Part shown: one piece after another, positions 2,183 to 16,768 of the stretch
How the letters are laid out: the number at the start of each line of letters is the position of its first letter
Position numbering within the stretch: position 1 is the first letter of the stretch
From: an uncultured virus (IMG/VR IMGVR_UViG_3300009610_000004)
Lineage: Duplodnaviria; Heunggongvirae; Uroviricota; Caudoviricetes
IMG/VR virus record: IMGVR_UViG_3300009610_000004
DNA length: 20,000 nucleotides
Reading direction: 5' to 3' (one strand)
The notes under the pieces: model-generated
Seen by the model: the letters and a program-made list of their open reading frames with translations, nothing else
Databases searched by the model: none
Told to the model about the DNA's origin: nothing
Made by a program: the position numbers and the translations under genes

Positions 2183-2449
2183 ATGAAAGCGATTATCGTT
2201 GGAATCGTGCTGGCCGGGATGGCGCTGGCCGAGACGGTGTACTTCGGATCGGCCTCGAAGGCGTTTCACAAGACGGTGGCGTGCAGTGCGAGGCCGGGCA
2301 AGCCTCACCAGTTGCACGCGGATCGAGCGGTGGCCGTGAAGCATGGGCTGAGTGAGTGCAAGCGTTGCTGGCGGGCGGCGAGCGCGAAGTCGAGCAAGGC
2401 GGGGAACGGCGCGTGGGCTGAGAAGGCCGAAGCAAAGGAGGTCAAGTAG
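2183..2449 (+). CDS. Small secreted protein with an Ada-Zn-binding-like Cys/His motif
   Basis: Signal-peptide-like MKAIIVGIVLAGMALA; FHxxxxC...A..HGLSECKRC; RBS AAGGTG upstream. Confidence 0.65.
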   Translation: MKAIIVGIVLAGMALAETVYFGSASKAFHKTVACSARPGKPHQLHADRAVAVKHGLSECKRCWRAASAKSSKAGNGAWAEKAEAKEVK

Positions 2450-5249: not shown

Positions 5250-5456
5250 ATGGCGAAAGCTAAAGCAGTGACAGTGACGATTGATACGGACCGCATTCTG
5301 GAAGCGGTCCAGGCAGACGACAATCTGGGGTTCTGCCTCGCGTGCGGCGAGGAAGCCTACGGCGTCGAACCGGATGCCCGGCGGTATCCCTGCGAGGCGT
5401 GCGGAGCCAAGCAGGTCTATGGGGCCGAAGAACTCATGATCATGGTGGTCGCATGA
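5250..5456 (+). CDS. Small Zn-ribbon phage protein
   Basis: GFCLACG...VEPDARRYPCEACG..VYGAEEL (two CxxC); strong RBS. Confidence 0.75.
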   Translation: MAKAKAVTVTIDTDRILEAVQADDNLGFCLACGEEAYGVEPDARRYPCEACGAKQVYGAEELMIMVVA

Positions 5457-5797
5457 GCGGCGCGGCGGCGAAGACGGCGGTGATCGCGCATCTCAACGAC
5501 CTCGCGCGGCGGGCGATGGGCGTTGGGTGCAAGCTGGTTGTCACGCCGGGCATTCGGGCGTTGCCAGATGCGGTCCAGTCGCGCATCCGCGAGCGGGTCG
5601 AGTTGTTCGACGACTTCAAAGAGTCGAACGATCCGTATGGCGAGCATGACTTTGGGGCCTTCGATCAGGCCGGGGCCGGGAAGGTCTTTTGGAAGATTGA
5701 CTACTACGGTCCTGACTTCATGTACCTGTCCGAGAACCCGGCCTCGACGGCGGCGACCCGGCGGGTTCTGACGATCATGCTCGCAGAGGAGTACTAG
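5453..5797 (+). CDS. DUF3768 family protein
   Basis: LND..R, FDDF...NDPYGEHDFG, FWKIDYY and TRRVLTIMLAEEY are the characteristic DUF3768 motifs. Confidence 0.9.
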   Translation: MSGAAAKTAVIAHLNDLARRAMGVGCKLVVTPGIRALPDAVQSRIRERVELFDDFKESNDPYGEHDFGAFDQAGAGKVFWKIDYYGPDFMYLSENPASTAATRRVLTIMLAEEY

Positions 5798-10380: not shown

Positions 10381-10676
10381 CAAACAGTGCGCGGTTGCGC
10401 CAGAAGAACGCGAGAGAGGCATACGAACGAACGGTCAAGAAACTGGGGGGCGGCAACGCCCCCCAGTTTCCGCCTAAGCCCACTGAACAGGCGGCTGCCT
10501 CGCCGCCGGCCAAGAGGAAGCCGGGCCGCAGACCCGGCGATCCGACAAACACGGGGCCAGGCCGGGGTTTGACGGTCCCGTGCTGGTGGGGCTGCGGCGA
10601 ACTGGTGAGCGGCGTGACGCTGCGGCCGCACTGGGTGAACTGCCCGAACCGGCCAGACAGGCGGCAGACGCCGTGA
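10377..10676 (+). CDS. Small basic protein with a C-terminal CxxxC..HxxxC Zn finger
   Basis: TTG start in a TTGA overlap, GGAGG RBS; CWWGC...HWVNC. Confidence 0.6.
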   Translation: MTNSARLRQKNAREAYERTVKKLGGGNAPQFPPKPTEQAAASPPAKRKPGRRPGDPTNTGPGRGLTVPCWWGCGELVSGVTLRPHWVNCPNRPDRRQTP

Positions 10677-11677
10677 CCTACGGCAGCGTGTTCGCCGGGA
10701 TCGGCGGGCTCGACCTTGGACTTGACCGGGCGGGTATGATCTGTCAGTGGCAAATAGAAAAAGACGAGTACTGTCGCCGCGTGCTGGCGCGGCACTGGCC
10801 GGGAGTGAAGCGGTATGACGATGTTCGAAGGATTGGAGGGGGAGAACTCTCCCCCGTCGATCTCATGTGCGGCGGGTTCCCCTGCCAAGACCTCTCCCAG
10901 GCGGGTAAAAAGGCGGGGCTCGAGGGAACTCGCTCGAGCCTTTGGTTTGAATTCGCCCGTCTCGTTGGGGTTCTTCGACCCGAGTACGTTCTCATTGAAA
11001 ACGTGTCAGGCATCCTTGTTCCAGGAGCACTTTCCCGAGTGGTTGGAGGTCTGGCCGAACGCGGGTATGTGGGATCGTGGCTCAGTCTACGAGCTTCTGA
11101 CTTCGGAGCCTCCCATCTCAGGAAGCGGGTCTTCATTGTGGCCTACCGCGATGACGACGGACTCAGCGAGCGCGGCGAGGCGAACGACGACGACGGGAGT
11201 CTCACATACGGGCACCACGTTGTCGGATGCGATAGTCACATGGCAGACGCCGGGGACCGACAGTTTCCGCTCACGGGGCGGGGACCGGAAAGAGGAGATG
11301 GGCCTCGACCAGCAAGCGCGGCACTTTCCCACGCCAGCGGCGAGGGATTACCGGACGCCGAACAAGCGCACCTACCAGGAGCGGGGAGGCCGGTTCAAGG
11401 GCGAACAGTTACAGAACTTTGTGGAGCATTCGCTCCCGGCCCCAACGATCCCAGATGGGCAGATATCCTCAGAGAGCGGCCCGATCTTGCACCGGCTCTC
11501 CCCAAGATTCGTCGAGTGGCTGATGGGATTTCCACCGGGCTGGACCGAGCTATGAACGAGCGCTCGAAGCGGCTCGCCCGGTTAGGGAACGCGGTGGTGC
11601 CGCAGATCGCCGAGTGGTTGGGGCAGTTGATACTGGCTTTTGAACAAGGAAGGACGCGCCGCCCCAGCGAGGGATAA
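10673..11677 (+). CDS. dcm: DNA (cytosine-5) methyltransferase, large (alpha-like) polypeptide
   Basis: Motif I FAGIGG, IV GGFPCQD, VI ENV, VIII HLRKRVF, X LGNAVVP; motif IX is absent from this frame; GTG start in a GTGA overlap. Confidence 0.92.
   Translation: MTYGSVFAGIGGLDLGLDRAGMICQWQIEKDEYCRRVLARHWPGVKRYDDVRRIGGGELSPVDLMCGGFPCQDLSQAGKKAGLEGTRSSLWFEFARLVGVLRPEYVLIENVSGILVPGALSRVVGGLAERGYVGSWLSLRASDFGASHLRKRVFIVAYRDDDGLSERGEANDDDGSLTYGHHVVGCDSHMADAGDRQFPLTGRGPERGDGPRPASAALSHASGEGLPDAEQAHLPGAGRPVQGRTVTELCGAFAPGPNDPRWADILRERPDLAPALPKIRRVADGISTGLDRAMNERSKRLARLGNAVVPQIAEWLGQLILAFEQGRTRRPSEG
10815..11555 (+). CDS. Nested +1-frame methyltransferase small (beta-like) polypeptide carrying motif IX
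   Basis: 246-aa ORF wholly inside the MTase gene; GGAG 9 nt upstream of the ATG; ends RLSPRFVEWLMGFPPGWTEL (motif IX). Confidence 0.8.
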   Translation: MTMFEGLEGENSPPSISCAAGSPAKTSPRRVKRRGSRELARAFGLNSPVSLGFFDPSTFSLKTCQASLFQEHFPEWLEVWPNAGMWDRGSVYELLTSEPPISGSGSSLWPTAMTTDSASAARRTTTTGVSHTGTTLSDAIVTWQTPGTDSFRSRGGDRKEEMGLDQQARHFPTPAARDYRTPNKRTYQERGGRFKGEQLQNFVEHSLPAPTIPDGQISSESGPILHRLSPRFVEWLMGFPPGWTEL

Positions 11678-11729: not shown

Positions 11730-11996
11730 ATGGCAACGATGACAGACGCGCAACGAGCGGCCCTGGTGCGTATGCAGGAGGCGAACGCGGCGAAGAAGCG
11801 CGCCGCCGCGGGTACGGCCTCGCCGGAGCCTCCCGAACAGGCGGCTGACGGTGTCCAGGGCGATCCTCCCAACCCGCCGGGCACGCGCTGGGCGGATGAG
11901 AAACTCAGCGAAACTCGGCAAAACTCGGCGGTCGCGAGTGAGCCTATTTGTGATATGTGCGGGCGTAGCTGGCAGAACTGCGAATGCTGGCGCTAA
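11730..11996 (+). CDS. Hypothetical protein with a C-terminal Cys cluster
   Basis: GAGGG RBS; CDMC..CEC; converges on the MBL gene with overlapping stops. Confidence 0.55.
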   Translation: MATMTDAQRAALVRMQEANAAKKRAAAGTASPEPPEQAADGVQGDPPNPPGTRWADEKLSETRQNSAVASEPICDMCGRSWQNCECWR

Positions 11997-12778
11997 CCTA
12001 GCACCCACGGGCCCGAAGACGCACCCGGCTCGATCACCTCAAGCTCTGCCGTGAACTTCAGGCGATCCAGTTCGCGCCGCGCCATCAGCCGCACGAGCTC
12101 CGGGTCGTTCGTCGAGAGCGACAGGTGCCCCAGGAGCAGGTACTTGGTCCGGTGCGTCATGTGCTCCGAGATCCACGCACAAGCGGCTTCGTTCGACAGG
12201 TGCGTCTTCAGGATGCGTTCCTTCAGCTTGTAGGCATACGGGCCCGCGCGGAGCATGTCCGGGTCATGGTTGGCTTCGACGAGGACGAGGTCCGAGTCGG
12301 CGATGTAATCGGCGAGGTCGCCGCCCAGCGTGCCGAGGTCCAGGGCGAACGAGGCCCGCTGCTTGCCCACTTCGACGGTAAAGCCGAGAGGCTCCTTGGT
12401 ATCGTGCTCGACGGCGAAGCACTCGCACCGGATCTTACCTATGTCCCAGCGGCTCGACTGGTTGATCTCGCGGAACCAGTGGTGGACCGGAATCACGCCG
12501 GGCATCGTCGCCCACGTCGAGTAGGAGCAGTAGACCGGCACGCACCGGCCTCCGCGCCGCCAGCGGCGGATGAGTGTGCCGAGGCCGGCGCAATGATCGA
12601 TGTGCGGGTGAGTCAAGAGGACGGCGTCGATGTTGTCGACGGACTCGCCGACCGCCGCCAGGCGCGTAGTGGTTTCGAGCAGCGAGAGTCCCGCGTCGAT
12701 CAACAGGCGGGTGGTGCCGTCTGACACAAACGTGGAATTGCCCGCGCTGGACGTGGCAAGGACGGCGACCGTCAGCAC
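11993..12778 (-). CDS. Metallo-beta-lactamase-fold hydrolase (YycJ/WalJ-like nuclease family)
   Basis: LATSSAGN, LIDAG, THPHIDH (HxHxDH), VEHD, EANHD, HLSN, GHLS. Confidence 0.9.
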   Translation of the reverse strand: MLTVAVLATSSAGNSTFVSDGTTRLLIDAGLSLLETTTRLAAVGESVDNIDAVLLTHPHIDHCAGLGTLIRRWRRGGRCVPVYCSYSTWATMPGVIPVHHWFREINQSSRWDIGKIRCECFAVEHDTKEPLGFTVEVGKQRASFALDLGTLGGDLADYIADSDLVLVEANHDPDMLRAGPYAYKLKERILKTHLSNEAACAWISEHMTHRTKYLLLGHLSLSTNDPELVRLMARRELDRLKFTAELEVIEPGASSGPWVLG

Positions 12779-12808
12779 GCCGCACCACCAAAGGCGTAGA
12801 CTAGATGC

Positions 12809-12842
12809 GAGCCGAGCGGTGTTGGAAGCACCGCAGCGGCTC
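12809..12842 (+). promoter_or_regulatory. Leader hairpin of the HNH gene
   Basis: GAGCCG-A-GCGGTG-ttggaag-CACCGC-AG-CGGCTC; a TAGACT -10-like box at 12797-12802; AAGGAG RBS downstream. Confidence 0.5.
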
Positions 12843-12870
12843 TGACCAATGAGATCTGAAAGGAGATCGC

Positions 12871-13317
12871 ATGGCTAGCACCAAGTCTACTGTCGCAGGA
12901 TACTTCTGCTGGAAAGCAATGATCAGGCGCTGCACCAGTGAGAGGCATTCTTCTTATCCCAATTACGGCGGTCGCGGCATTACTGTCTATCCGCCCTGGT
13001 TGGATTCCTTCCAGAGTTTTCTGAACCACATTGGACCGAGACCTTCTCCGCAGCACTCTATCGACCGTATGGATAACGATGGCAATTACGAACCGGGGAA
13101 CGTCCAGTGGGCTACCACAAAAGAGCAACGCAACAACGCCAGGAGTAACGTGTTCGTCGAAGTGGGCGGCGAGAGGATTCCGGTGCAAGAGGCAGCACGG
13201 CGCGTGGGGATATCCAGGCAAGCCATGACCAAGAGAATCCGGCTGGGATGTCCTCCCGAGAAGATCTTTACGTCTGCCCAACCGGGGCGGAAGTTTAAAG
13301 CTGGCGGGGGGATTTGA
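12871..13317 (+). CDS. Free-standing phage HNH-type (His-Me finger) endonuclease
   Basis: WxxMxxRC, YGGRGI and SIDRMDNDGNYEPGNVQWAT motifs; C-terminal HTH-like segment; oriented opposite to its neighbours. Confidence 0.85.
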   Translation: MASTKSTVAGYFCWKAMIRRCTSERHSSYPNYGGRGITVYPPWLDSFQSFLNHIGPRPSPQHSIDRMDNDGNYEPGNVQWATTKEQRNNARSNVFVEVGGERIPVQEAARRVGISRQAMTKRIRLGCPPEKIFTSAQPGRKFKAGGGI

Positions 13318-13425
13318 ACCCCCATTACCCACCAAAGGTGGAGTGCTGTTTTCGTCTTGTTCTGACGAGTCTCTCTGGGGCTGCAGCCCCTCGCCGGGGG
13401 AGTTCCCCGATTGCAGAACGCCAGC
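13299..13425 (-). ncRNA. 127-nt tRNA-like RNA with expanded core and no canonical anticodon arm
   Basis: Perfect 7-bp acceptor stem GCTGGCG/CGCCAGC; T arm GGGGG-TTCAAAT-CCCCC; U8, A14, A15, G18 and G19 at canonical positions; 95 nt between the acceptor 5' strand and the T arm. Confidence 0.7.
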
Positions 13426-13442
13426 CATTATTATTGCACCTC

Positions 13443-13475
13443 AAAAATAGGGCGTACAGATCGTCCGTACGCCCT
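13443..13475 (-). terminator. Probable intrinsic terminator upstream of the tRNA-like RNA
   Basis: Minus strand AGGGCGTAC-9nt-GTACGCCCT-ATTTTT. Confidence 0.65.
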
Positions 13476-13539
13476 TGGATGAAGGAATTGGACGCAATTG
13501 TTTTCCCGCTGGCCCCTCCTCCGAGACGGGCCAGCAGTT

Positions 13540-13869
13540 TTACGGCTTATCAAGATTAGCATTCGATCCTGCACGTTCCTTGAGTGCCTTGTCAAGGGCG
13601 AACATGCTCTGCAGCCCGTCCACGATGAAACAGGCGTCGTAGGGGCCGATCATGGCGATCGGCCAGCCGTTGCGCTCGACGTTGACGGTGTATGGATCGA
13701 CCTCTTCGATCTTCTCCCGGTGCGGATTGACCGTGAGCCAGAAGTCCCCCGCTTCGAACTTCCACAGGCCCGGCAGCTTATTGAGCGGGACGACGCCATC
13801 GCGCTCGGCGATGGTGCAGATCGAGGTCCAGAGGCCGGAAAGAAACTTCGCCTGATGTTCAGACGACAT
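13540..13869 (-). CDS. Hypothetical phage protein
   Basis: 109-aa ORF with GAGG RBS, overlapping the upstream gene by 11 nt. Confidence 0.7.
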   Translation of the reverse strand: MSSEHQAKFLSGLWTSICTIAERDGVVPLNKLPGLWKFEAGDFWLTVNPHREKIEEVDPYTVNVERNGWPIAMIGPYDACFIVDGLQSMFALDKALKERAGSNANLDKP

Positions 13870-14089
13870 GGTTCAGCCTCATGTGCTTGGACATGCGCGA
13901 GGCGCTGATGATGGCCCCGCATTCGAGGCACTTGGCCTTGCGCGCCGGCCGTCCCACGCCGCGCAGGAACGGTGCAAAGCCCACGCGCTTGCGCAGGTAA
14001 TCGCTCAGGGACAATTTCTGCTTGTCGGCCTTGGCCCAGAGCGCCTCCAGTTCCTGGTCGTTGTCGAGCTTCATCACTATTTGCGGCAT
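13859..14089 (-). CDS. Ribbon-helix-helix-like regulator with a C-terminal C2H2 Zn finger
   Basis: PQIVMKL (beta strand), two helices ending SLSDYLR, GRP motif, CLECG...HMRLNH; ATG 14089 lies 7 nt after a TAGAAT box. Confidence 0.65.
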   Translation of the reverse strand: MPQIVMKLDNDQELEALWAKADKQKLSLSDYLRKRVGFAPFLRGVGRPARKAKCLECGAIISASRMSKHMRLNHVV

Positions 14090-14096
14090 CGTGCCT

Positions 14097-14144
14097 ATTC
14101 TAAACACGATTAGTTTGCCATCGCAAGAGTGATTAGCGTACTAT
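14097..14144. promoter_or_regulatory. Overlapping divergent promoters
   Basis: Minus: TTGCGA(14126-14121)-N18-TAGAAT(14102-14097). Plus: TTGCCA(14115-14120)-N18-TACTAT(14139-14144). Confidence 0.55.
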
Positions 14145-14163
14145 TTGCATTGAGGTGAAAGCA

Positions 14164-14982
14164 ATGAGTCTGGCAACTCTGAACGCGAAGAACTCGCGCG
14201 AGCGCTACGCCGCCATCTGGCGCAACTTCGACCGGGATCTCACCGCCGAGGGCATCCGGTCCTACATCGTCGAGAAGCGGGACGGCGGGTATGCCCCGGC
14301 GACCGTGAACCTGCACCTGGCGGCGCTGAAGTTCCTGGCCCGCGAGAGCGCCGCGGCCGAGGAGCTCCCCGGCATCGAGGCCATCAAGAGCCTGCCGGTG
14401 CGCGGCGTTCGCATGGGGACGTGGCTCTCGCTCGAACAGGTGACCCGGCTGCTCGACTATGGTATCCCCAATCTCACCGCGGCTCGGGACCGGTGCCTCC
14501 TAGCCCTGCTGACCGGGTGCGCCCTGCGGAGGTCGGAGGTCGCATCTCTCCAAATTGGGCACGTCCAGACGCTGGACGGGCGCGTGGTGCTCCTGGATCT
14601 GGTGGGGAAGGGCCGCAGGGTCCGGACGGTTCCCGTCCCGTCCTGGGCCAATTCTGCGCTAAATTCGTGGCTCCAGGCGGCCGGCCTCTCGAAGGGACCG
14701 GTCCTGAGGCGGGTCTGGAAGGGCCAAGTGGGCGAGGAAGGGCTGACACCGGACCACATTCACGCGATCGTCAAACGGGCGGGTGAACGGATCGGCGTGC
14801 CCCAGCTTGCCCCGCACGATCTCCGCAGGACGTTTGCGCGGCTGGCTCTGAAGGGCAAGGCCCAGTTGTCCCAGATCCAGTTGACGCTCGGCCACTCGTC
14901 GGTGGCGATCACCGACAGGTATCTGAACAGCACGGTGGACCTGGAGAACCCCGCCTGCGATGCCATCAAACTATGCCAATAA
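14164..14982 (+). CDS. Tyrosine recombinase (Xer-like, no arm-binding domain)
   Basis: Catalytic residues: LRRSE (R), GKG (K), HDLRR (HxxR), LGH, TDRY (Y); GAGGTG RBS. Confidence 0.93.
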   Translation: MSLATLNAKNSRERYAAIWRNFDRDLTAEGIRSYIVEKRDGGYAPATVNLHLAALKFLARESAAAEELPGIEAIKSLPVRGVRMGTWLSLEQVTRLLDYGIPNLTAARDRCLLALLTGCALRRSEVASLQIGHVQTLDGRVVLLDLVGKGRRVRTVPVPSWANSALNSWLQAAGLSKGPVLRRVWKGQVGEEGLTPDHIHAIVKRAGERIGVPQLAPHDLRRTFARLALKGKAQLSQIQLTLGHSSVAITDRYLNSTVDLENPACDAIKLCQ

Positions 14983-14984
14983 AC

Positions 14985-15611
14985 ATGGAAACCCTCCCCG
15001 CGCGTATGCGCTCTCTGAAGCTCACCGACAAGGGCGTCCCGATCCCCTGGTTCGTCGCCTACGTCAACGGCAAACCCGAATTCAGGGCGATGGACAACCA
15101 AAAGTTCATCAGCGCCATCAAGCAGCGTTTGTGCTGGGTCTGCGGCGAACGCATGGGCGTCTGGAAGGTATTTGTCGCCGGGCCCATGTGCGGCGTCAAC
15201 CGCACGTCGAGCGAACCACCCAGCCACTCGGAGTGTGCGCTCTGGTCGGCGCAAAACTGCCCGTTCCTGTCGAACCCGAAGATGGTGCGCCGCGAGGACG
15301 AACTCATCAACAACGACCTGATGCGGGACAACGTGGGCGGTATGGGGATCACGCGCAACCCCGGTGTCGCCATGCTCTGGCTCACCCGCGAGTACGAGCT
15401 CTTCCGAACCGATACGGGCCCGCTGATCCAGATGGGCGAGCCGGATTCGGTGGGTTGGATCTGCGAGGGCCGGGACGCTACCAGGGCCGAGGTCCAGGCT
15501 TCGATTGACAGCGGGCTGCCTCTCCTCGAAGCGGTGGCCAAGACCGAGAAGGGCGGTCTGGAAGCGCTGCACAAGGCCGTGGCCCGGTTCGAGAAGTGGC
15601 TACCAGTATGA
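14985..15611 (+). CDS. Hypothetical Cys/His-containing phage protein
   Basis: GVPIPWF, CWVCG, GPMC, HSECA, CPFL; alternative start at 14973. Confidence 0.75.
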   Translation: METLPARMRSLKLTDKGVPIPWFVAYVNGKPEFRAMDNQKFISAIKQRLCWVCGERMGVWKVFVAGPMCGVNRTSSEPPSHSECALWSAQNCPFLSNPKMVRREDELINNDLMRDNVGGMGITRNPGVAMLWLTREYELFRTDTGPLIQMGEPDSVGWICEGRDATRAEVQASIDSGLPLLEAVAKTEKGGLEALHKAVARFEKWLPV

Positions 15612-16768
15612 GCAGCAACTATCCGGCCCCGAAGTATATTCCCTGTACCCATTGCGGCGCCGAGTTTCTGGGCAAGCCCTGGCAAGTGAAGAAATACAAC
15701 CGCACCAAGCGAGCGTACTGCTCGCCGGTCTGCGGCAACGCCGCTCTCCGCAAGCAGCGCAAACCAATGCCCATGTACACCTGTCCAACCTGCCTCGTCG
15801 AGTTCGGTTCACGCGCGCCGAAAAGGTACTGCTCGCTGAAGTGCTACATTACCTCCGATCAGTTCCGCCAGCACACGCTCGCCATGCAACCCAAGGGGAA
15901 TGCGGCGAGCGTGCTGGCCCAGACCGGGCGGCTCGCCGAGGGCACCATCGAGCAGCCGTGCCTCAACTGCCAAGCGACAATCCGGGTCGAGTTCGGTAAG
16001 CGGGGGAAGAAGAAATATTGCAGCACACGCTGCTACCGGGCCTTTATGGCGGGCCGCTTCGACCGCTGGATCGCCAATCCCCAGGAGATCGCCCTGCCCC
16101 AGTGCTACGACGAGTTCCTCATGCAGGACGAGTTGCCCTGCCTGATCGACGGCTGCGACTGGGTCGGCAAGCGCCTGGGGAACCACGTCAACTTCGCGCA
16201 CGGCATCCAGGCGGTCGACTTCAAGCGCGCCGCCGGGTTCAACAAGAAGACCGGCCTGCACACGCCTGACGTGGCGCAGCACTTGTCCGATCGCGCGCAT
16301 ATCCACGGGGCCACCTTTGGCGGCGGCTTCGACGGCATCCCCAACCCGATCCGCTCGCCGCGGTCCCTGGAAGCCGATGAGCACCTCCACAAGGCGCAGG
16401 CCCTCATGCGCGAGATCTATGTGCAGCCGGAGCGCGTCTGCGAGAGTTGCGGCGTGACCTACCAGCCGGCGCCGCTCGGCTGGAATTCAAGGTACTGCAC
16501 AAAGAAATGCCGGGAACAGTGGTACGCCAAGAACTATCAGAGGGCGCAATTCTGGTTCACTTGCGCCGTCTGCAAGAAAGCCTTCCAGGGGAACATAGCC
16601 CAGCGCCGCCGCCACGAGATACATGGCAAGCCGGTGTTCTGTTCGACGCATTGCCGTCAACTCAACAACAGCAACTGCTGGCGCAAGGGCCGGCCCAAGG
16701 GAGGCGGCCGGAAGAAAAGCGGTCCAGGCACTCGCGTGGACGTGACCGGAGATTCGCCTCAGGTGTGA
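15608..16768 (+). CDS. Multi-Zn-finger protein: five CxxC..(Y/F)C(S/T)xxC repeats around a Ros/MucR-like domain
   Basis: Repeats read directly from the translation; central CLIDGC..LGNHVNFAHGIQAVDFKRAAGF; ATGA coupling. Confidence 0.75.
   Translation: MSSNYPAPKYIPCTHCGAEFLGKPWQVKKYNRTKRAYCSPVCGNAALRKQRKPMPMYTCPTCLVEFGSRAPKRYCSLKCYITSDQFRQHTLAMQPKGNAASVLAQTGRLAEGTIEQPCLNCQATIRVEFGKRGKKKYCSTRCYRAFMAGRFDRWIANPQEIALPQCYDEFLMQDELPCLIDGCDWVGKRLGNHVNFAHGIQAVDFKRAAGFNKKTGLHTPDVAQHLSDRAHIHGATFGGGFDGIPNPIRSPRSLEADEHLHKAQALMREIYVQPERVCESCGVTYQPAPLGWNSRYCTKKCREQWYAKNYQRAQFWFTCAVCKKAFQGNIAQRRRHEIHGKPVFCSTHCRQLNNSNCWRKGRPKGGGRKKSGPGTRVDVTGDSPQV

Follow-up and report, generated by a model that had tools for sequence, protein, structure and literature searches.

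A tRNA-shaped RNA occupies 13299..13425 on the minus strand of the window, by which we mean the whole stretch of 20,000 nucleotides that was analysed. In its native setting it is part of an mRNA, placed precisely between the AUG and the second codon of a gene for an MBL-fold putative phosphodiesterase. Comparison of its copies shows that the element belongs to a small family of structured RNAs, hitherto undescribed, which occurs in temperate phages of soil and sediment. Judged by its pairing, it is a mimic of the 'top half' of a tRNA and not a tRNA. We infer that it most likely gates or processes the MBL message in cis at the start codon, and we would put the probability of that reading at roughly 0.4. 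Mimicry of tRNA is known from the 3' ends of plant RNA viruses, from a few eukaryotic long RNAs and from bacterial leader regions. No covarying, tRNA-shaped RNA that stands in frame right behind the start codon of a DNA-phage gene is known to us, and a full-text search of the literature returned no description of a tRNA-shaped RNA in frame directly after a phage start codon.

The element is 127 nt long including a discriminator-like U, and positions 13425 to 13300, 126 nt in all, can be read as 42 codons in frame with the ATG 5' of them. Its ends are joined by an acceptor-like closing helix of 7 bp (GCTGGCG/CGCCAGC). Between the acceptor strand and the T arm are 95 nt with four extra hairpins, and no CCA is encoded at the 3' end. 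The minus-strand sequence itself reads just as the sequence-only reading had given it. The helices are as follows.

13419..13425, minus strand: 5' strand of the closing helix, which pairs with 13300-13306
13409-13395, minus strand: helix H1, CGGGG-AACUC-CCCCG, in the place of a D arm; with two more invariant G-C pairs it covers 13393..13414
13377..13390, minus strand: helix H2, GGGGC-UGCA-GCCCC, a tetraloop hairpin where a tRNA has its anticodon arm
13352..13368, minus strand: helix H3, UCGUC-AGAACAA-GACGA; its flanks are invariant, and no other part of the element is as well conserved
13329..13341, minus strand: helix H4, CCACC-UUU-GGUGG, with two compensatory pairs and one changed to a wobble
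13307..13323, minus strand: T arm, GGGGG-UUCAAAU-CCCCC, 5 bp, contiguous with the 3' acceptor strand

The MFE of the element is -57.9 kcal/mol against -44.9 +/- 3.9 for shuffled sequences (z -3.33), and none of 200 shuffles was as good. Four further distinct copies (L037, L038, L043 and L047) were found in phage and metagenome contigs with CM matches of 93-144 bits, and all six helices are kept in all five sequences. Standard pairs fill 99.4% of the 167 pair cells, and 14 of the 34 pairs have changed on both sides. None of 500 shuffles reached the observed level of covariation, a test made on only five distinct sequences and inflated by their shared ancestry; slid controls were 30-48% paired. 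RNAalifold run on a plain MAFFT alignment gave the same six helices, with compensatory changes in 15 of 38 pairs, and made the closing helix one of eight pairs by counting G13426, the third base of the ATG, opposite U13299. Five of the seven pairs of the closing helix are changed on both sides and 100% of its cells are paired. Compensatory change is seen in two of five pairs of H1 (CCGG-8 nt-CCGG in L037, CUGG..CCAG in L047), in two of five of H2 (G-C to A-U in L043 and L037; the helix is 6 nt longer in L047) and in three of five of the T arm, and H4 reads CUGCC/GGCAG in L038 and L043. All five pairs of H3 are invariant in the five sequences, so no evidence of covariation comes from it. In the H3 region the protein P0007 has DFSEQEKN where others have DSSEQDEN, and these would be the residues that two compensatory changes in H3 pairs give. 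G-U pairs occur solely in the MBL-sense strand. The T loop fits UUCRANY in every copy (UUCAAAU, UUCAAGU, UUCGAAU, UUCGAGC and UUCAACU), and the sequence of the acceptor varies from copy to copy.

Between copies the core of the element is 84-100% identical, as against 53-75% for the third codon positions of the MBL gene. Because the helices are kept, their pairs change in a compensatory manner and the core is more conserved than the synonymous sites of the neighbouring gene, the alignments argue that selection is acting on the RNA. The earlier view that this is a tRNA mimic and not the product of random decay is thus upheld by the covariation in five sequences and by the conserved core, with homologues from phages and metagenomes keeping the structure. 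That reading had also placed G18G19 and the D loop in canonical register and had seen in G18G19 a conserved elbow. Here we disagree, since those bases are paired in the covarying H1 and the register shifts in L037 and L047. Two other structures were considered and dropped. A pseudoknot between AGAAC of the H3 loop and GUUCU (nt 7-11) is complementary in the window, L038 and L043 and not in L037 or L047, and a hammerhead-like reading of GACGAAAC lacks the CUGANGA box by eye.

A 24-nt core pattern was found in five viral and three metagenome stretches, which come to four distinct sequences besides the window's own. Scanning with model R1 gave no match in 60 viral loci from a 15-mer scan (65 returned, five dropped as duplicates of contigs already included), a set that excludes the window and the four other copies. 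Among more distant MBL relatives, model R2 did not find the element in six further viral loci or 80 bacterial ones; one match at E 0.48, in L141, looks like an ordinary tRNA. A search for homologues by way of the p109 neighbour led only to the window's own virus, and G001 and L001 are fragments of that same virus and add no diversity.

The likeness to a tRNA lies in the acceptor helix (7-8 bp) contiguous with the T arm (5-6 bp) and in the T-loop consensus. The Rfam tRNA model (RF00005) matches the window element end to end and near its threshold, at 27.6 bits against a gathering score of 29 (E 0.0012 in a 551-nt search), and its alignment needs insertions of 22 and 46 nt. The same model has no match at E <= 10 in L037, L038 or L047; the similarity in L047 is confined to the T arm, which matches the tmRNA model weakly at 13.5 bits. 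What the element lacks is an anticodon arm. Among the loops of its hairpins are a tetraloop, a triloop and one 7-nt AGAACAA, and the earlier statement that no 7-nt loop has U33 is correct since this sole candidate has G there. It differs from a tRNA further by a covarying 7-bp bulged hairpin at the D-arm position, by two extra variable-region hairpins, by the missing CCA and by its location in an ORF. ARAGORN found no tRNA or tmRNA in the window element, and no Rfam family reached its gathering score there. These checks, which had been proposed at the outset, leave neither an intron-bearing tRNA (no helix offers a 7-nt loop with U33) nor a known Rfam family. A group I intron was also rejected: the P1-P9 core of such introns takes up at least about 200 nt, and the element is 126 nt, in frame and stop-free with no Rfam match.

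The tmRNA deserves a separate comparison. It too has a tRNA top half that encloses helices foreign to tRNA, with tRNA-like and message-like parts in one RNA. However, tmRNAs are 260-400 nt long, and the element, at about 127 nt, has no pseudoknots and no tag ORF with a stop; frame 0 runs without one. Pair 3-70 is U-A or G-C and not the G3:U70 of tmRNA (RF00023), and with ARAGORN negative we reject this identification. Weak cmscan matches of the window to mascRNA/MEN-beta (RF01684, 15.0 bits), to the Tymo TLS (RF00233, 13.6 bits) and likewise to plastid motifs are far below thresholds. By analogy, mascRNA and the viral 3' TLS resemble the element as acceptor/T-arm mimics within a longer RNA that may be cut by RNase P and Z. 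Those RNAs are eukaryotic or belong to plant RNA viruses and stand at 3' ends, whereas the element stands at the start codon of a DNA-phage gene and is translated in frame with it.

The position of the element is as telling as its fold. The features upstream of it, together with an open frame that runs through it, are these.

13426..13442, minus strand: SD GAGGTG at 13442-13437, an 8-nt A/T-rich spacer and ATG at 13428-13426
13441..13475, minus strand: intrinsic terminator of the upstream p82-p109 genes, a 12-bp stem (13475-13449) and a T-run
12772..13428, minus strand: open frame of 218 codons, from the element's ATG through the HNH gene in antisense, its TGA overlapping the MBL GTG (GTGCTGA)

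The ATG abuts the element, and an SD, 6-9 nt and an ATG are found at all five filled sites and at the empty site of L118. In every copy the SD, ATG and element are in frame with the MBL hydrolase ORF or ancestrally fused to it. Four copies have 126 nt between the ATG and the CTT codon and the other has 132 nt, a single independent length change. None of the five has a stop in frame 0 (frame 1 of L037 has three), though with a probability of no stop of 0.20-0.27 per shuffled sequence and about three independent lineages the statistics of the open frame are weak. L037 and L043 must use the upstream ATG, since the stretch from the element to the conserved SSAGN motif offers them no in-frame ATG, GTG or TTG. 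Comparison of the relatives indicates that there the element is translated as an N-terminal tail, for which disorder is predicted (residues 1-43 of P0007 have a pLDDT <50). The element is also optional: it is missing from this site in four syntenic phages. Filled and vacant sites that share their flanks can be set side by side (vacant L118 beside L037, vacant L122 beside L038).

The terminator and TGCAATAAT stand 5' of the element, and the terminator is at the same place in L037 and in the empty-site L118 and not in L038, L043 or L047. The sequence-only reading had pointed to a terminator and a TGnAATAAT box and proposed that the element is its own transcription unit. Both signals are present, but the box is also the spacer between the conserved SD and ATG. 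As a promoter it was rejected: the -10-like hexamer is not kept (GATAAT, GACAAT), and in L038 and L047 an upstream ORF reaches the ATG, ending 2-5 nt before it. We therefore think TGnAATAAT is better read as an SD-ATG spacer. A separate transcription unit is contradicted by the same ORF and by the fusion of SD, ATG and element to the MBL frame.

The window's arrangement of the MBL gene is not the usual one, since a homing-endonuclease cassette stands between the element and the body of the gene.

11993..12778, minus strand: MBL-fold hydrolase gene, 261 aa, GTG start (Lactamase_B_2 1e-24; phrog_392 3e-42)
12770..13293: homing-endonuclease cassette of about 524 nt
12779..12870: cassette 5' region, with a hairpin and the HNH SD on the plus strand and a new MBL SD, GGTGGTG, on the minus strand
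12871..13317, plus strand: HNH homing endonuclease gene, 148 aa (phrog_3377, E 9.4e-44)
14155-14982: tyrosine integrase, 730 nt from the element, syntenic in relatives

By sequence and predicted fold the MBL gene belongs to a branch that includes Apyc1, YhfI and RNase Z-like proteins, and its product is a putative phosphodiesterase. The protein has weak N-terminal matches to RNase Z/PhnP, and it matches Apyc1 (7u2r) at E 1.5e-6 by sequence with a fold TM of 0.53/0.68. Foldseek returned an ElaC homologue, YhfI, Apyc1, PhnP and PqqB, with Apyc1 no better than the ElaC homologue, YhfI or PhnP. Against the Apyc1 family PF23023, with its cut-off of 50 bits, the window protein scores 16.5 and that of L047 scores 22.7, both below it; precomputed PF23023 matches are listed for most of the MBL homologues. 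Apyc1 is an anti-Pycsar enzyme (PMC9117128).

The HNH gene fits a free-standing homing endonuclease in its family match and in its presence/absence polymorphism at a conserved site; the Pfam HNH domain was not found in it. Its homologues align only to about residue 134-137, and its last 12 or so codons are unconserved, running into the complement of the element to stop at a TGA in the complement of the T loop. L047 has a different HNH gene at the same junction (Pfam HNH_3, 9.7e-10). The two endonucleases are unrelated and yet, compared by eye, about 75 nt of the cassette 5' region are common to both. L037, L038 and L043 have no cassette at this junction. In a soil-metagenome contig 13316 is followed, after 43 letters of other sequence, by 12748, so that 567 nt are left out, and P0008 is a HEG-less, near-identical MBL protein. 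No element or tRNA was found beside any of 30-31 loci of HNH homologues in varied contexts, so the HNH gene is an intruder and not a partner of the element. Comparison with the uninterrupted copies shows that in the window the cassette has inserted just 3' of the element and that the MBL gene has acquired its own GTG start.

We return now to the proposed cis gate on the start codon. In the folds the SD and the AU are unpaired, and the first base of the closing helix is the G of the AUG. Because of that placement, closing the helix should both block initiation and create an RNase P/Z-type site at the start codon. Completion of the helix would have to wait for the transcription of its 3' strand, 120 nt further on. 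Ribosomes would therefore be able to load only as long as the fold is incomplete, or as long as a ribosome ahead keeps it from closing. The closed fold would occlude the mRNA beyond the AUG. Recognition of the acceptor/T-arm minihelix is well established for RNase P, RNase Z and the CCA-adding enzyme. The closed fold would show such a minihelix to RNase P on its 5' side, at the AUG, and on its 3' side, at UUAAA, the minihelix may be recognised by RNase Z or RNase E. Untranslated copies would thereby be cut at the start codon and switched off, with a stable tRNA-like RNA as the by-product. The RNase P/Z idea fits the anatomy, the element having the structural prerequisites for it. Among 24 sequencing runs listed, no RNA run contains this stretch. 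An analogue is the operator in the E. coli thrS leader, which is likewise a tRNA-like fold at a translation start, and like it the element could repress initiation. The thrS operator mimics the anticodon arm and is upstream of the start codon and untranslated. The element mimics the top half and lies downstream of the AUG. If a gate of processing or translation is correct, it would offer a compact and testable model of a long-range helix that kinetically controls initiation, and of host tRNA-processing enzymes put to use on a phage mRNA.

Two observations are awkward for the gate. In two of the five copies, those of the window and L047, the MBL gene lies apart from the element and starts on its own, and still all helices are intact. 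A gate that works in cis alone would not lead one to expect this, barring a recent date for the insertions or, in the window, a coupling that persists by way of the 218-codon frame. A gate by itself would also not need the invariant core of H3 and the junctions.

Both are natural points for the main rival, the view that the element works as a product in trans, which we consider possible, if unlikely. Excised by RNase P and RNase Z (or by RNase E and exonucleases) and perhaps CCA-tailed, it would build up as a stable tRNA mimic without an anticodon and tie up a host factor that recognises the acceptor end or elbow of tRNAs, such as a tRNA-targeting defence toxin. The MBL gene would serve as a mere carrier or as a partner in anti-defence. 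The helices that stay intact in the two copies uncoupled by endonuclease cassettes speak for it, and the invariant core suggests a specific partner. The trees also disagree, as the window's MBL is nearest to L037 (89% aa) and its core is identical to that of L038, which suggests a separate module. The neighbouring MBL falls in the branch that includes the anti-Pycsar enzyme Apyc1. However, an RNA acting in trans needs neither an exact place after the AUG nor a kept frame, its excision would destroy the MBL message in HEG-less phages, and an unconserved acceptor sequence argues against a fixed identity set. A released decoy, if that is what the element is, would add an RNA component to phage counter-defence beside an Apyc1-like enzyme.

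It is doubtful, in our view, that the element is only an optional, selfish insertion carried along with the homing endonucleases that visit the 5' end of the MBL gene. It would be tolerated because, in frame, stop-free and coding for a disordered tail, it does no harm, and its fold would serve its own spread or stability rather than the phage. The presence/absence polymorphism with identical flanks (five filled sites against four empty among the closer phage MBL loci examined) is what such an insertion would leave. So are the incongruent trees, the HEG-less allele in a near-identical phage and a hot spot where two unrelated HNH endonucleases entered the same junction. Free-standing homing endonucleases of the T4-type mob/seg kind split or invade phage genes, and the unrelated HNH genes at one junction, the polymorphism and the host gene with a new start are all reminiscent of them. 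That likeness concerns the cassette at 12770-13293 and not the RNA element, which is without an endonuclease in three of its five copies. Conservation runs opposite to a gradient of co-conversion, since variation is highest in H4, the T arm and the 3' acceptor strand, nearest the endonuclease site, while the core, farther from it, is identical. The filled and empty sites show no target-site duplication, each genome has a single copy, and harmlessness needs no RNA fold, yet the fold is what is conserved. The peptide signature is in no other gene family either, its three protein matches being the window's own 218-aa frame and two that are low-complexity or weak. The Rickettsia palindromic elements are structured in-frame insertions into ORFs, dispersed as repeats in many copies per genome. 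The element resembles them as a foldable piece of 100-150 nt that is in frame and translated as an extra peptide, and differs in being single-copy, in one gene at one codon position and with a tRNA-like T arm.

We are more sceptical still of a dual use, in which a cis gate on the start codon, one that ribosomes have to translate, would time an Apyc1-like anti-defence phosphodiesterase and the stable, anticodon-less mimic, once excised by RNase P/Z and given a CCA, would sequester in trans a host immune effector that attacks tRNA acceptor ends, the module moving from phage to phage with homing endonucleases.

A riboswitch-like aptamer that is translated through, with a small molecule such as a nucleotide signal setting MBL expression, is quite improbable. 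The architecture would suit one, with a P1-like helix that closes off five hairpins, stems that covary, junctions that do not vary and a T-loop motif, and so would the location at a translation start and an enzyme from a cyclic-nucleotide phosphodiesterase branch. The only Rfam matches at E <= 10 are to tRNA-like families, none of them at the gathering threshold, and no riboswitch family of Rfam 15 was matched at E <= 10 in the four element regions scanned (window, L037, L038 and L047). An aptamer downstream of the SD and AUG would be unusual, and the element persists when it is uncoupled from the gene.

Very little credence is due to the idea that there is no RNA function at all and the element is a decayed tRNA gene, an attP remnant copying a host tRNA or plain coding for an N-terminal peptide: the frame is open and phage attP sites, which often carry tRNA 3' ends, come to mind with an integrase so near, but an attP needs no compensatory changes in the non-tRNA helices H1, H2 and H4 and the 5' acceptor strand, the window core is identical to that of L038 without one synonymous change for MBL proteins only 74% identical, the 24-nt core pattern has 0 stretches in the genomes of 185,579 species (genome_contigs), and the 3' half is absent within two mismatches from four genomes tried, among which the true host may not be.

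The encoded peptide adds to the case against plain coding, being poorly conserved where the stems vary and disordered by prediction. It is important to realize what this means for annotation. The main constraint on a coding sequence can be the structure of its RNA, with the peptide a disordered passenger, and elements of this kind may be missed both by gene callers and by searches confined to intergenic regions. Gene callers would report an N-terminal extension or, in the window, a spurious protein of 218 aa. That frame, entered in the protein database as P0126, failed a filter of GC3 >= 0.72 and is probably a shadow ORF.

The element lies in phage DNA of about 63% G+C whose genes include a DnaB helicase, a replication initiator, a C5 methylase and a tyrosine integrase. 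The features that matter for its interpretation are as follows.

5342-5797 (+), DUF3768 protein (5e-29), among small plus-strand genes
10580-11677 (+), C5 cytosine DNA methylase (PF00145, 2e-43), converging on the MBL gene
11993-12778 (-), MBL-fold hydrolase gene, on the element's own strand and downstream of it
12871-13317 (+), HNH endonuclease gene of 148 aa, on the strand opposite to the element (phrog_3377, E 9.4e-44)
13475-13449, strong terminator just upstream of the element
13540-13869 (-), p109, no family
13859-14107 (-), p82, weak zinc-finger/NikA-like matches
15596-16768 (+), second HNH-like gene of 390 aa, near the integrase (phrog_1271, E 5e-15)

Throughout the phage group the genes p82 and p109, 5' of the element, keep their synteny with the integrase and MBL genes. 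By sequence the nearest solved relative of the MBL protein is Apyc1 (7u2r, E 1.5e-6, N-terminal part only); its Pfam Apyc1 score is 16.5 bits, below the 50-bit cut-off, and its fold neighbours are the ElaC homologue 1zkp, YhfI, Apyc1, PhnP and PqqB (TM to target 0.66-0.82). Hobbs et al. (PMC9117128) assign Apyc1, YhfI and RNase Z to one group, the class II MBL phosphodiesterases.

The nearest records, G001 and L001, are pieces of this same virus and contribute no diversity. A covariance model made from the window copy matches three loci with MBL homologues (L037, L038 and L040) at 102-144 bits, and each match ends exactly where the MBL match starts. Core-pattern scans gained a viral locus (L043) and a metagenome locus (L047), and a 15-mer scan found no further copy in 60 other loci. 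All comparisons of the element use five distinct sequences: the window, L037, L038, L043 and L047. It is absent from four syntenic phage contigs (L118, L119, L120 and L122; MBL 54-62% identical) and from all 80 loci of bacterial MBL relatives (at most 40% identical). Among 224 homologues in the protein database, the majority have a length of 255-270 aa and span the MBL part alone; the extended forms among 13 sequences examined are P0005, P0006, P0007 and the partial P0008. Upstream, L118 has what L037 has, a PEP-CTERM-like ORF end, an mmgR-like hairpin region, a terminator and GAGGTG, and then reads directly ATG-CTC-AAA-ATT. L122 shares its upstream gene with L038 and reads directly ATG-AAG-ATC. 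Since these two contigs have the same flanks without it, the element, about 126-130 nt, is an indel that falls precisely between Met1 and codon 2. It is optional.

The fold can be judged from how the copies differ. In the model-fitted alignment of the five sequences, 99.4% of 167 pair cells hold standard pairs and 14 of 34 pairs have changed on both sides; pairing falls to 30-48% once the partners are slid. The covariation score is 0.476 against 0.180 +/- 0.034 for shuffles (reached by none of 500), a test that overstates significance because the five sequences are related, so the slid controls and the count of double-changed pairs are the sturdier measures. RNAalifold, run on a plain MAFFT alignment, recovers all six of these helices, and 15 of its 38 pairs are compensatory. 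The closing helix, H1, H2, H4 and the T stem covary; H3 is invariant and is evidence neither way. G-U pairs are confined to the MBL-sense strand, and the T loop is UUCRANY in every copy. Core identity between copies is 84-100% (alignment columns 43-105) and that of adjacent MBL third codon positions 53-75%; the window and L038 have identical cores despite 74% identity of their MBL proteins. By these sequence comparisons the fold is under selection. As a separate observation on H3, the N-terminal extension of P0007 has AQRDFSEQEKNST where other proteins have QRDSSEQDENST, three residue changes that would be expected from two compensatory pair changes in the otherwise invariant H3, as read from the protein.

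The element is not a tRNA. On the minus strand, 13425-13299 reads GCUGGCG-UU-CUGC-AAUCGG ... GUAAU-GGGGG-UUCAAAU-CCCCC-CGCCAGC-U, with four hairpins within the 95 nt that separate the acceptor strand from the T arm and no CCA on its 3' side, exactly as the sequence-only reading described it. Of the checks which that reading proposed, ARAGORN finds no tRNA and no tmRNA in the window, and no family reaches its gathering score in Rfam. A permissive Rfam scan of 13100-13650 has tRNA as its best match, end to end (27.6 bits, E 0.0012; the tRNA threshold is 29 bits), at the price of 22- and 46-nt insertions in the D and anticodon regions. The window copy alone comes near this threshold: in 201-nt searches L038 and L037 have no tRNA match at E <= 10, and L047 matches in the T arm alone. 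The G18G19 claimed earlier does not survive, as those bases pair within H1 and the register is shifted in L037 and L047. The likeness to tRNA lies in the 'top half', where an acceptor-type helix stacks on a T arm. The strand folds at -57.9 kcal/mol against -44.9 +/- 3.9 for shuffles (z -3.33; none of 200 as good).

All five copies have a Shine-Dalgarno sequence (GAGGTG, GGAGG, AGGTGA or GGAGTG), then 7-9 nt, then an ATG abutting the element. The ATG, 42 element codons and the MBL gene form a single stop-free frame in L037, L038 and L043. L037 and L043 have no in-frame ATG, GTG or TTG from the element to the conserved SSAGN motif, so translation must begin at the ATG ahead of the element. Four copies of the element measure 126 nt and that of L047 measures 132 nt, and frame 0 is stop-free in all five (frame 1 of L037 has three stops). 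This is suggestive rather than strong support for a kept reading frame, because shuffling the element leaves frame 0 free of stops with a probability of 0.20-0.27. The encoded peptide is conserved solely where the RNA core is, and is predicted to be disordered (P0007 residues 1-43 have pLDDT below 50; residue 52 is where the MBL fold begins). The ORF that lies upstream in L038 and L047 stops 2-5 nt before the ATG, so the element is no separate transcription unit, contrary to what had been proposed from the sequence.

Folds with flanks leave the Shine-Dalgarno unpaired, as well as the A and U of the AUG; the 8-bp closing helix begins at the G, or one base later in L037 and L047. This helix would be completed late, and because its 3' strand is transcribed 120 nt after the 5' strand, initiation would be possible solely before closure or while a ribosome holds the helix open. 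RNase P, RNase Z and the CCA-adding enzyme recognise the acceptor/T-arm minihelix. Once closed, the element would present such a minihelix to them, and cleavage would take away the start codon. We rank first the reading that the element acts as a cis-acting gate and processing site, at a probability of about 40%. Second comes a released, stable decoy RNA, possible though doubtful, which better accounts for the invariant core and for intact copies uncoupled from the MBL gene. Third, and unlikely, is a selfish insertion tied to the traffic of endonucleases. That the element is a riboswitch seems very improbable, and that it has no RNA function at all even more so. In full-text searches, titles and abstract openings described no such element; phage tRNA-like candidates are reported in general terms in PMC10690425, whose supplementary tables might list the motif.

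Relative to L037, the window has an endonuclease cassette of about 524 additional nt (~12770-13293) right behind the CTT-AAA that follows the element. The last 19 nt of the HNH gene overlap the element; its homologues align only up to about residue 134-137, so the tail is read-through to a TGA in the T-loop complement. In a contig from a soil metagenome the sequence passes from 13316 to 12748, with 43 other letters in place of the 567 nt; this is the uninterrupted allele, and P0008 is its protein. After the insertion the window MBL gene starts at GTG 12778, preceded by GGTGGTG. At this junction L047 has another endonuclease, in matching orientation; it has 185 aa, matches Pfam HNH_3 at 9.7e-10 and is not related to the enzyme in the window (E 2.1). 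The MBL gene of L047 has its own ATG start, reading MLKV. By eye, both cassettes have about 75 nt in common ahead of the endonuclease start (window 12779-12870, L047 813-893), which suggests that the endonuclease ORF was exchanged inside a landing module that the two share. The shared stretch consists of a hairpin and AAGGAG. At 30 loci of HNH homologues the contexts varied, and neither the element nor a tRNA lay beside the HNH gene. The second HNH-like gene, near the integrase, means that the region has more than one endonuclease gene.

A 218-codon open frame (12772-13428, -), recorded as predicted protein P0126, begins at the element's ATG and crosses the HNH gene in antisense with the codons aligned, and its TGA overlaps the MBL GTG (GTGCTGA). 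Probably this frame is just the shadow ORF of a GC-rich gene; its translation, if it occurs, would link MBL translation to the element's ATG. In L037, after the ORF with the PEP-CTERM-like tail and immediately 5' of the MBL Shine-Dalgarno, 2276-2363 (+) matches mmgR/suhB (RF00519; 31.6 bits, gathering 41, E 0.0034), with a CCUCCUCC motif and a terminator; a homologous stretch lies at about 1385-1485 of L118. The mmgR/suhB family consists of alphaproteobacterial sRNAs, and this stretch may be an sRNA carried by the phage or may point to the host.
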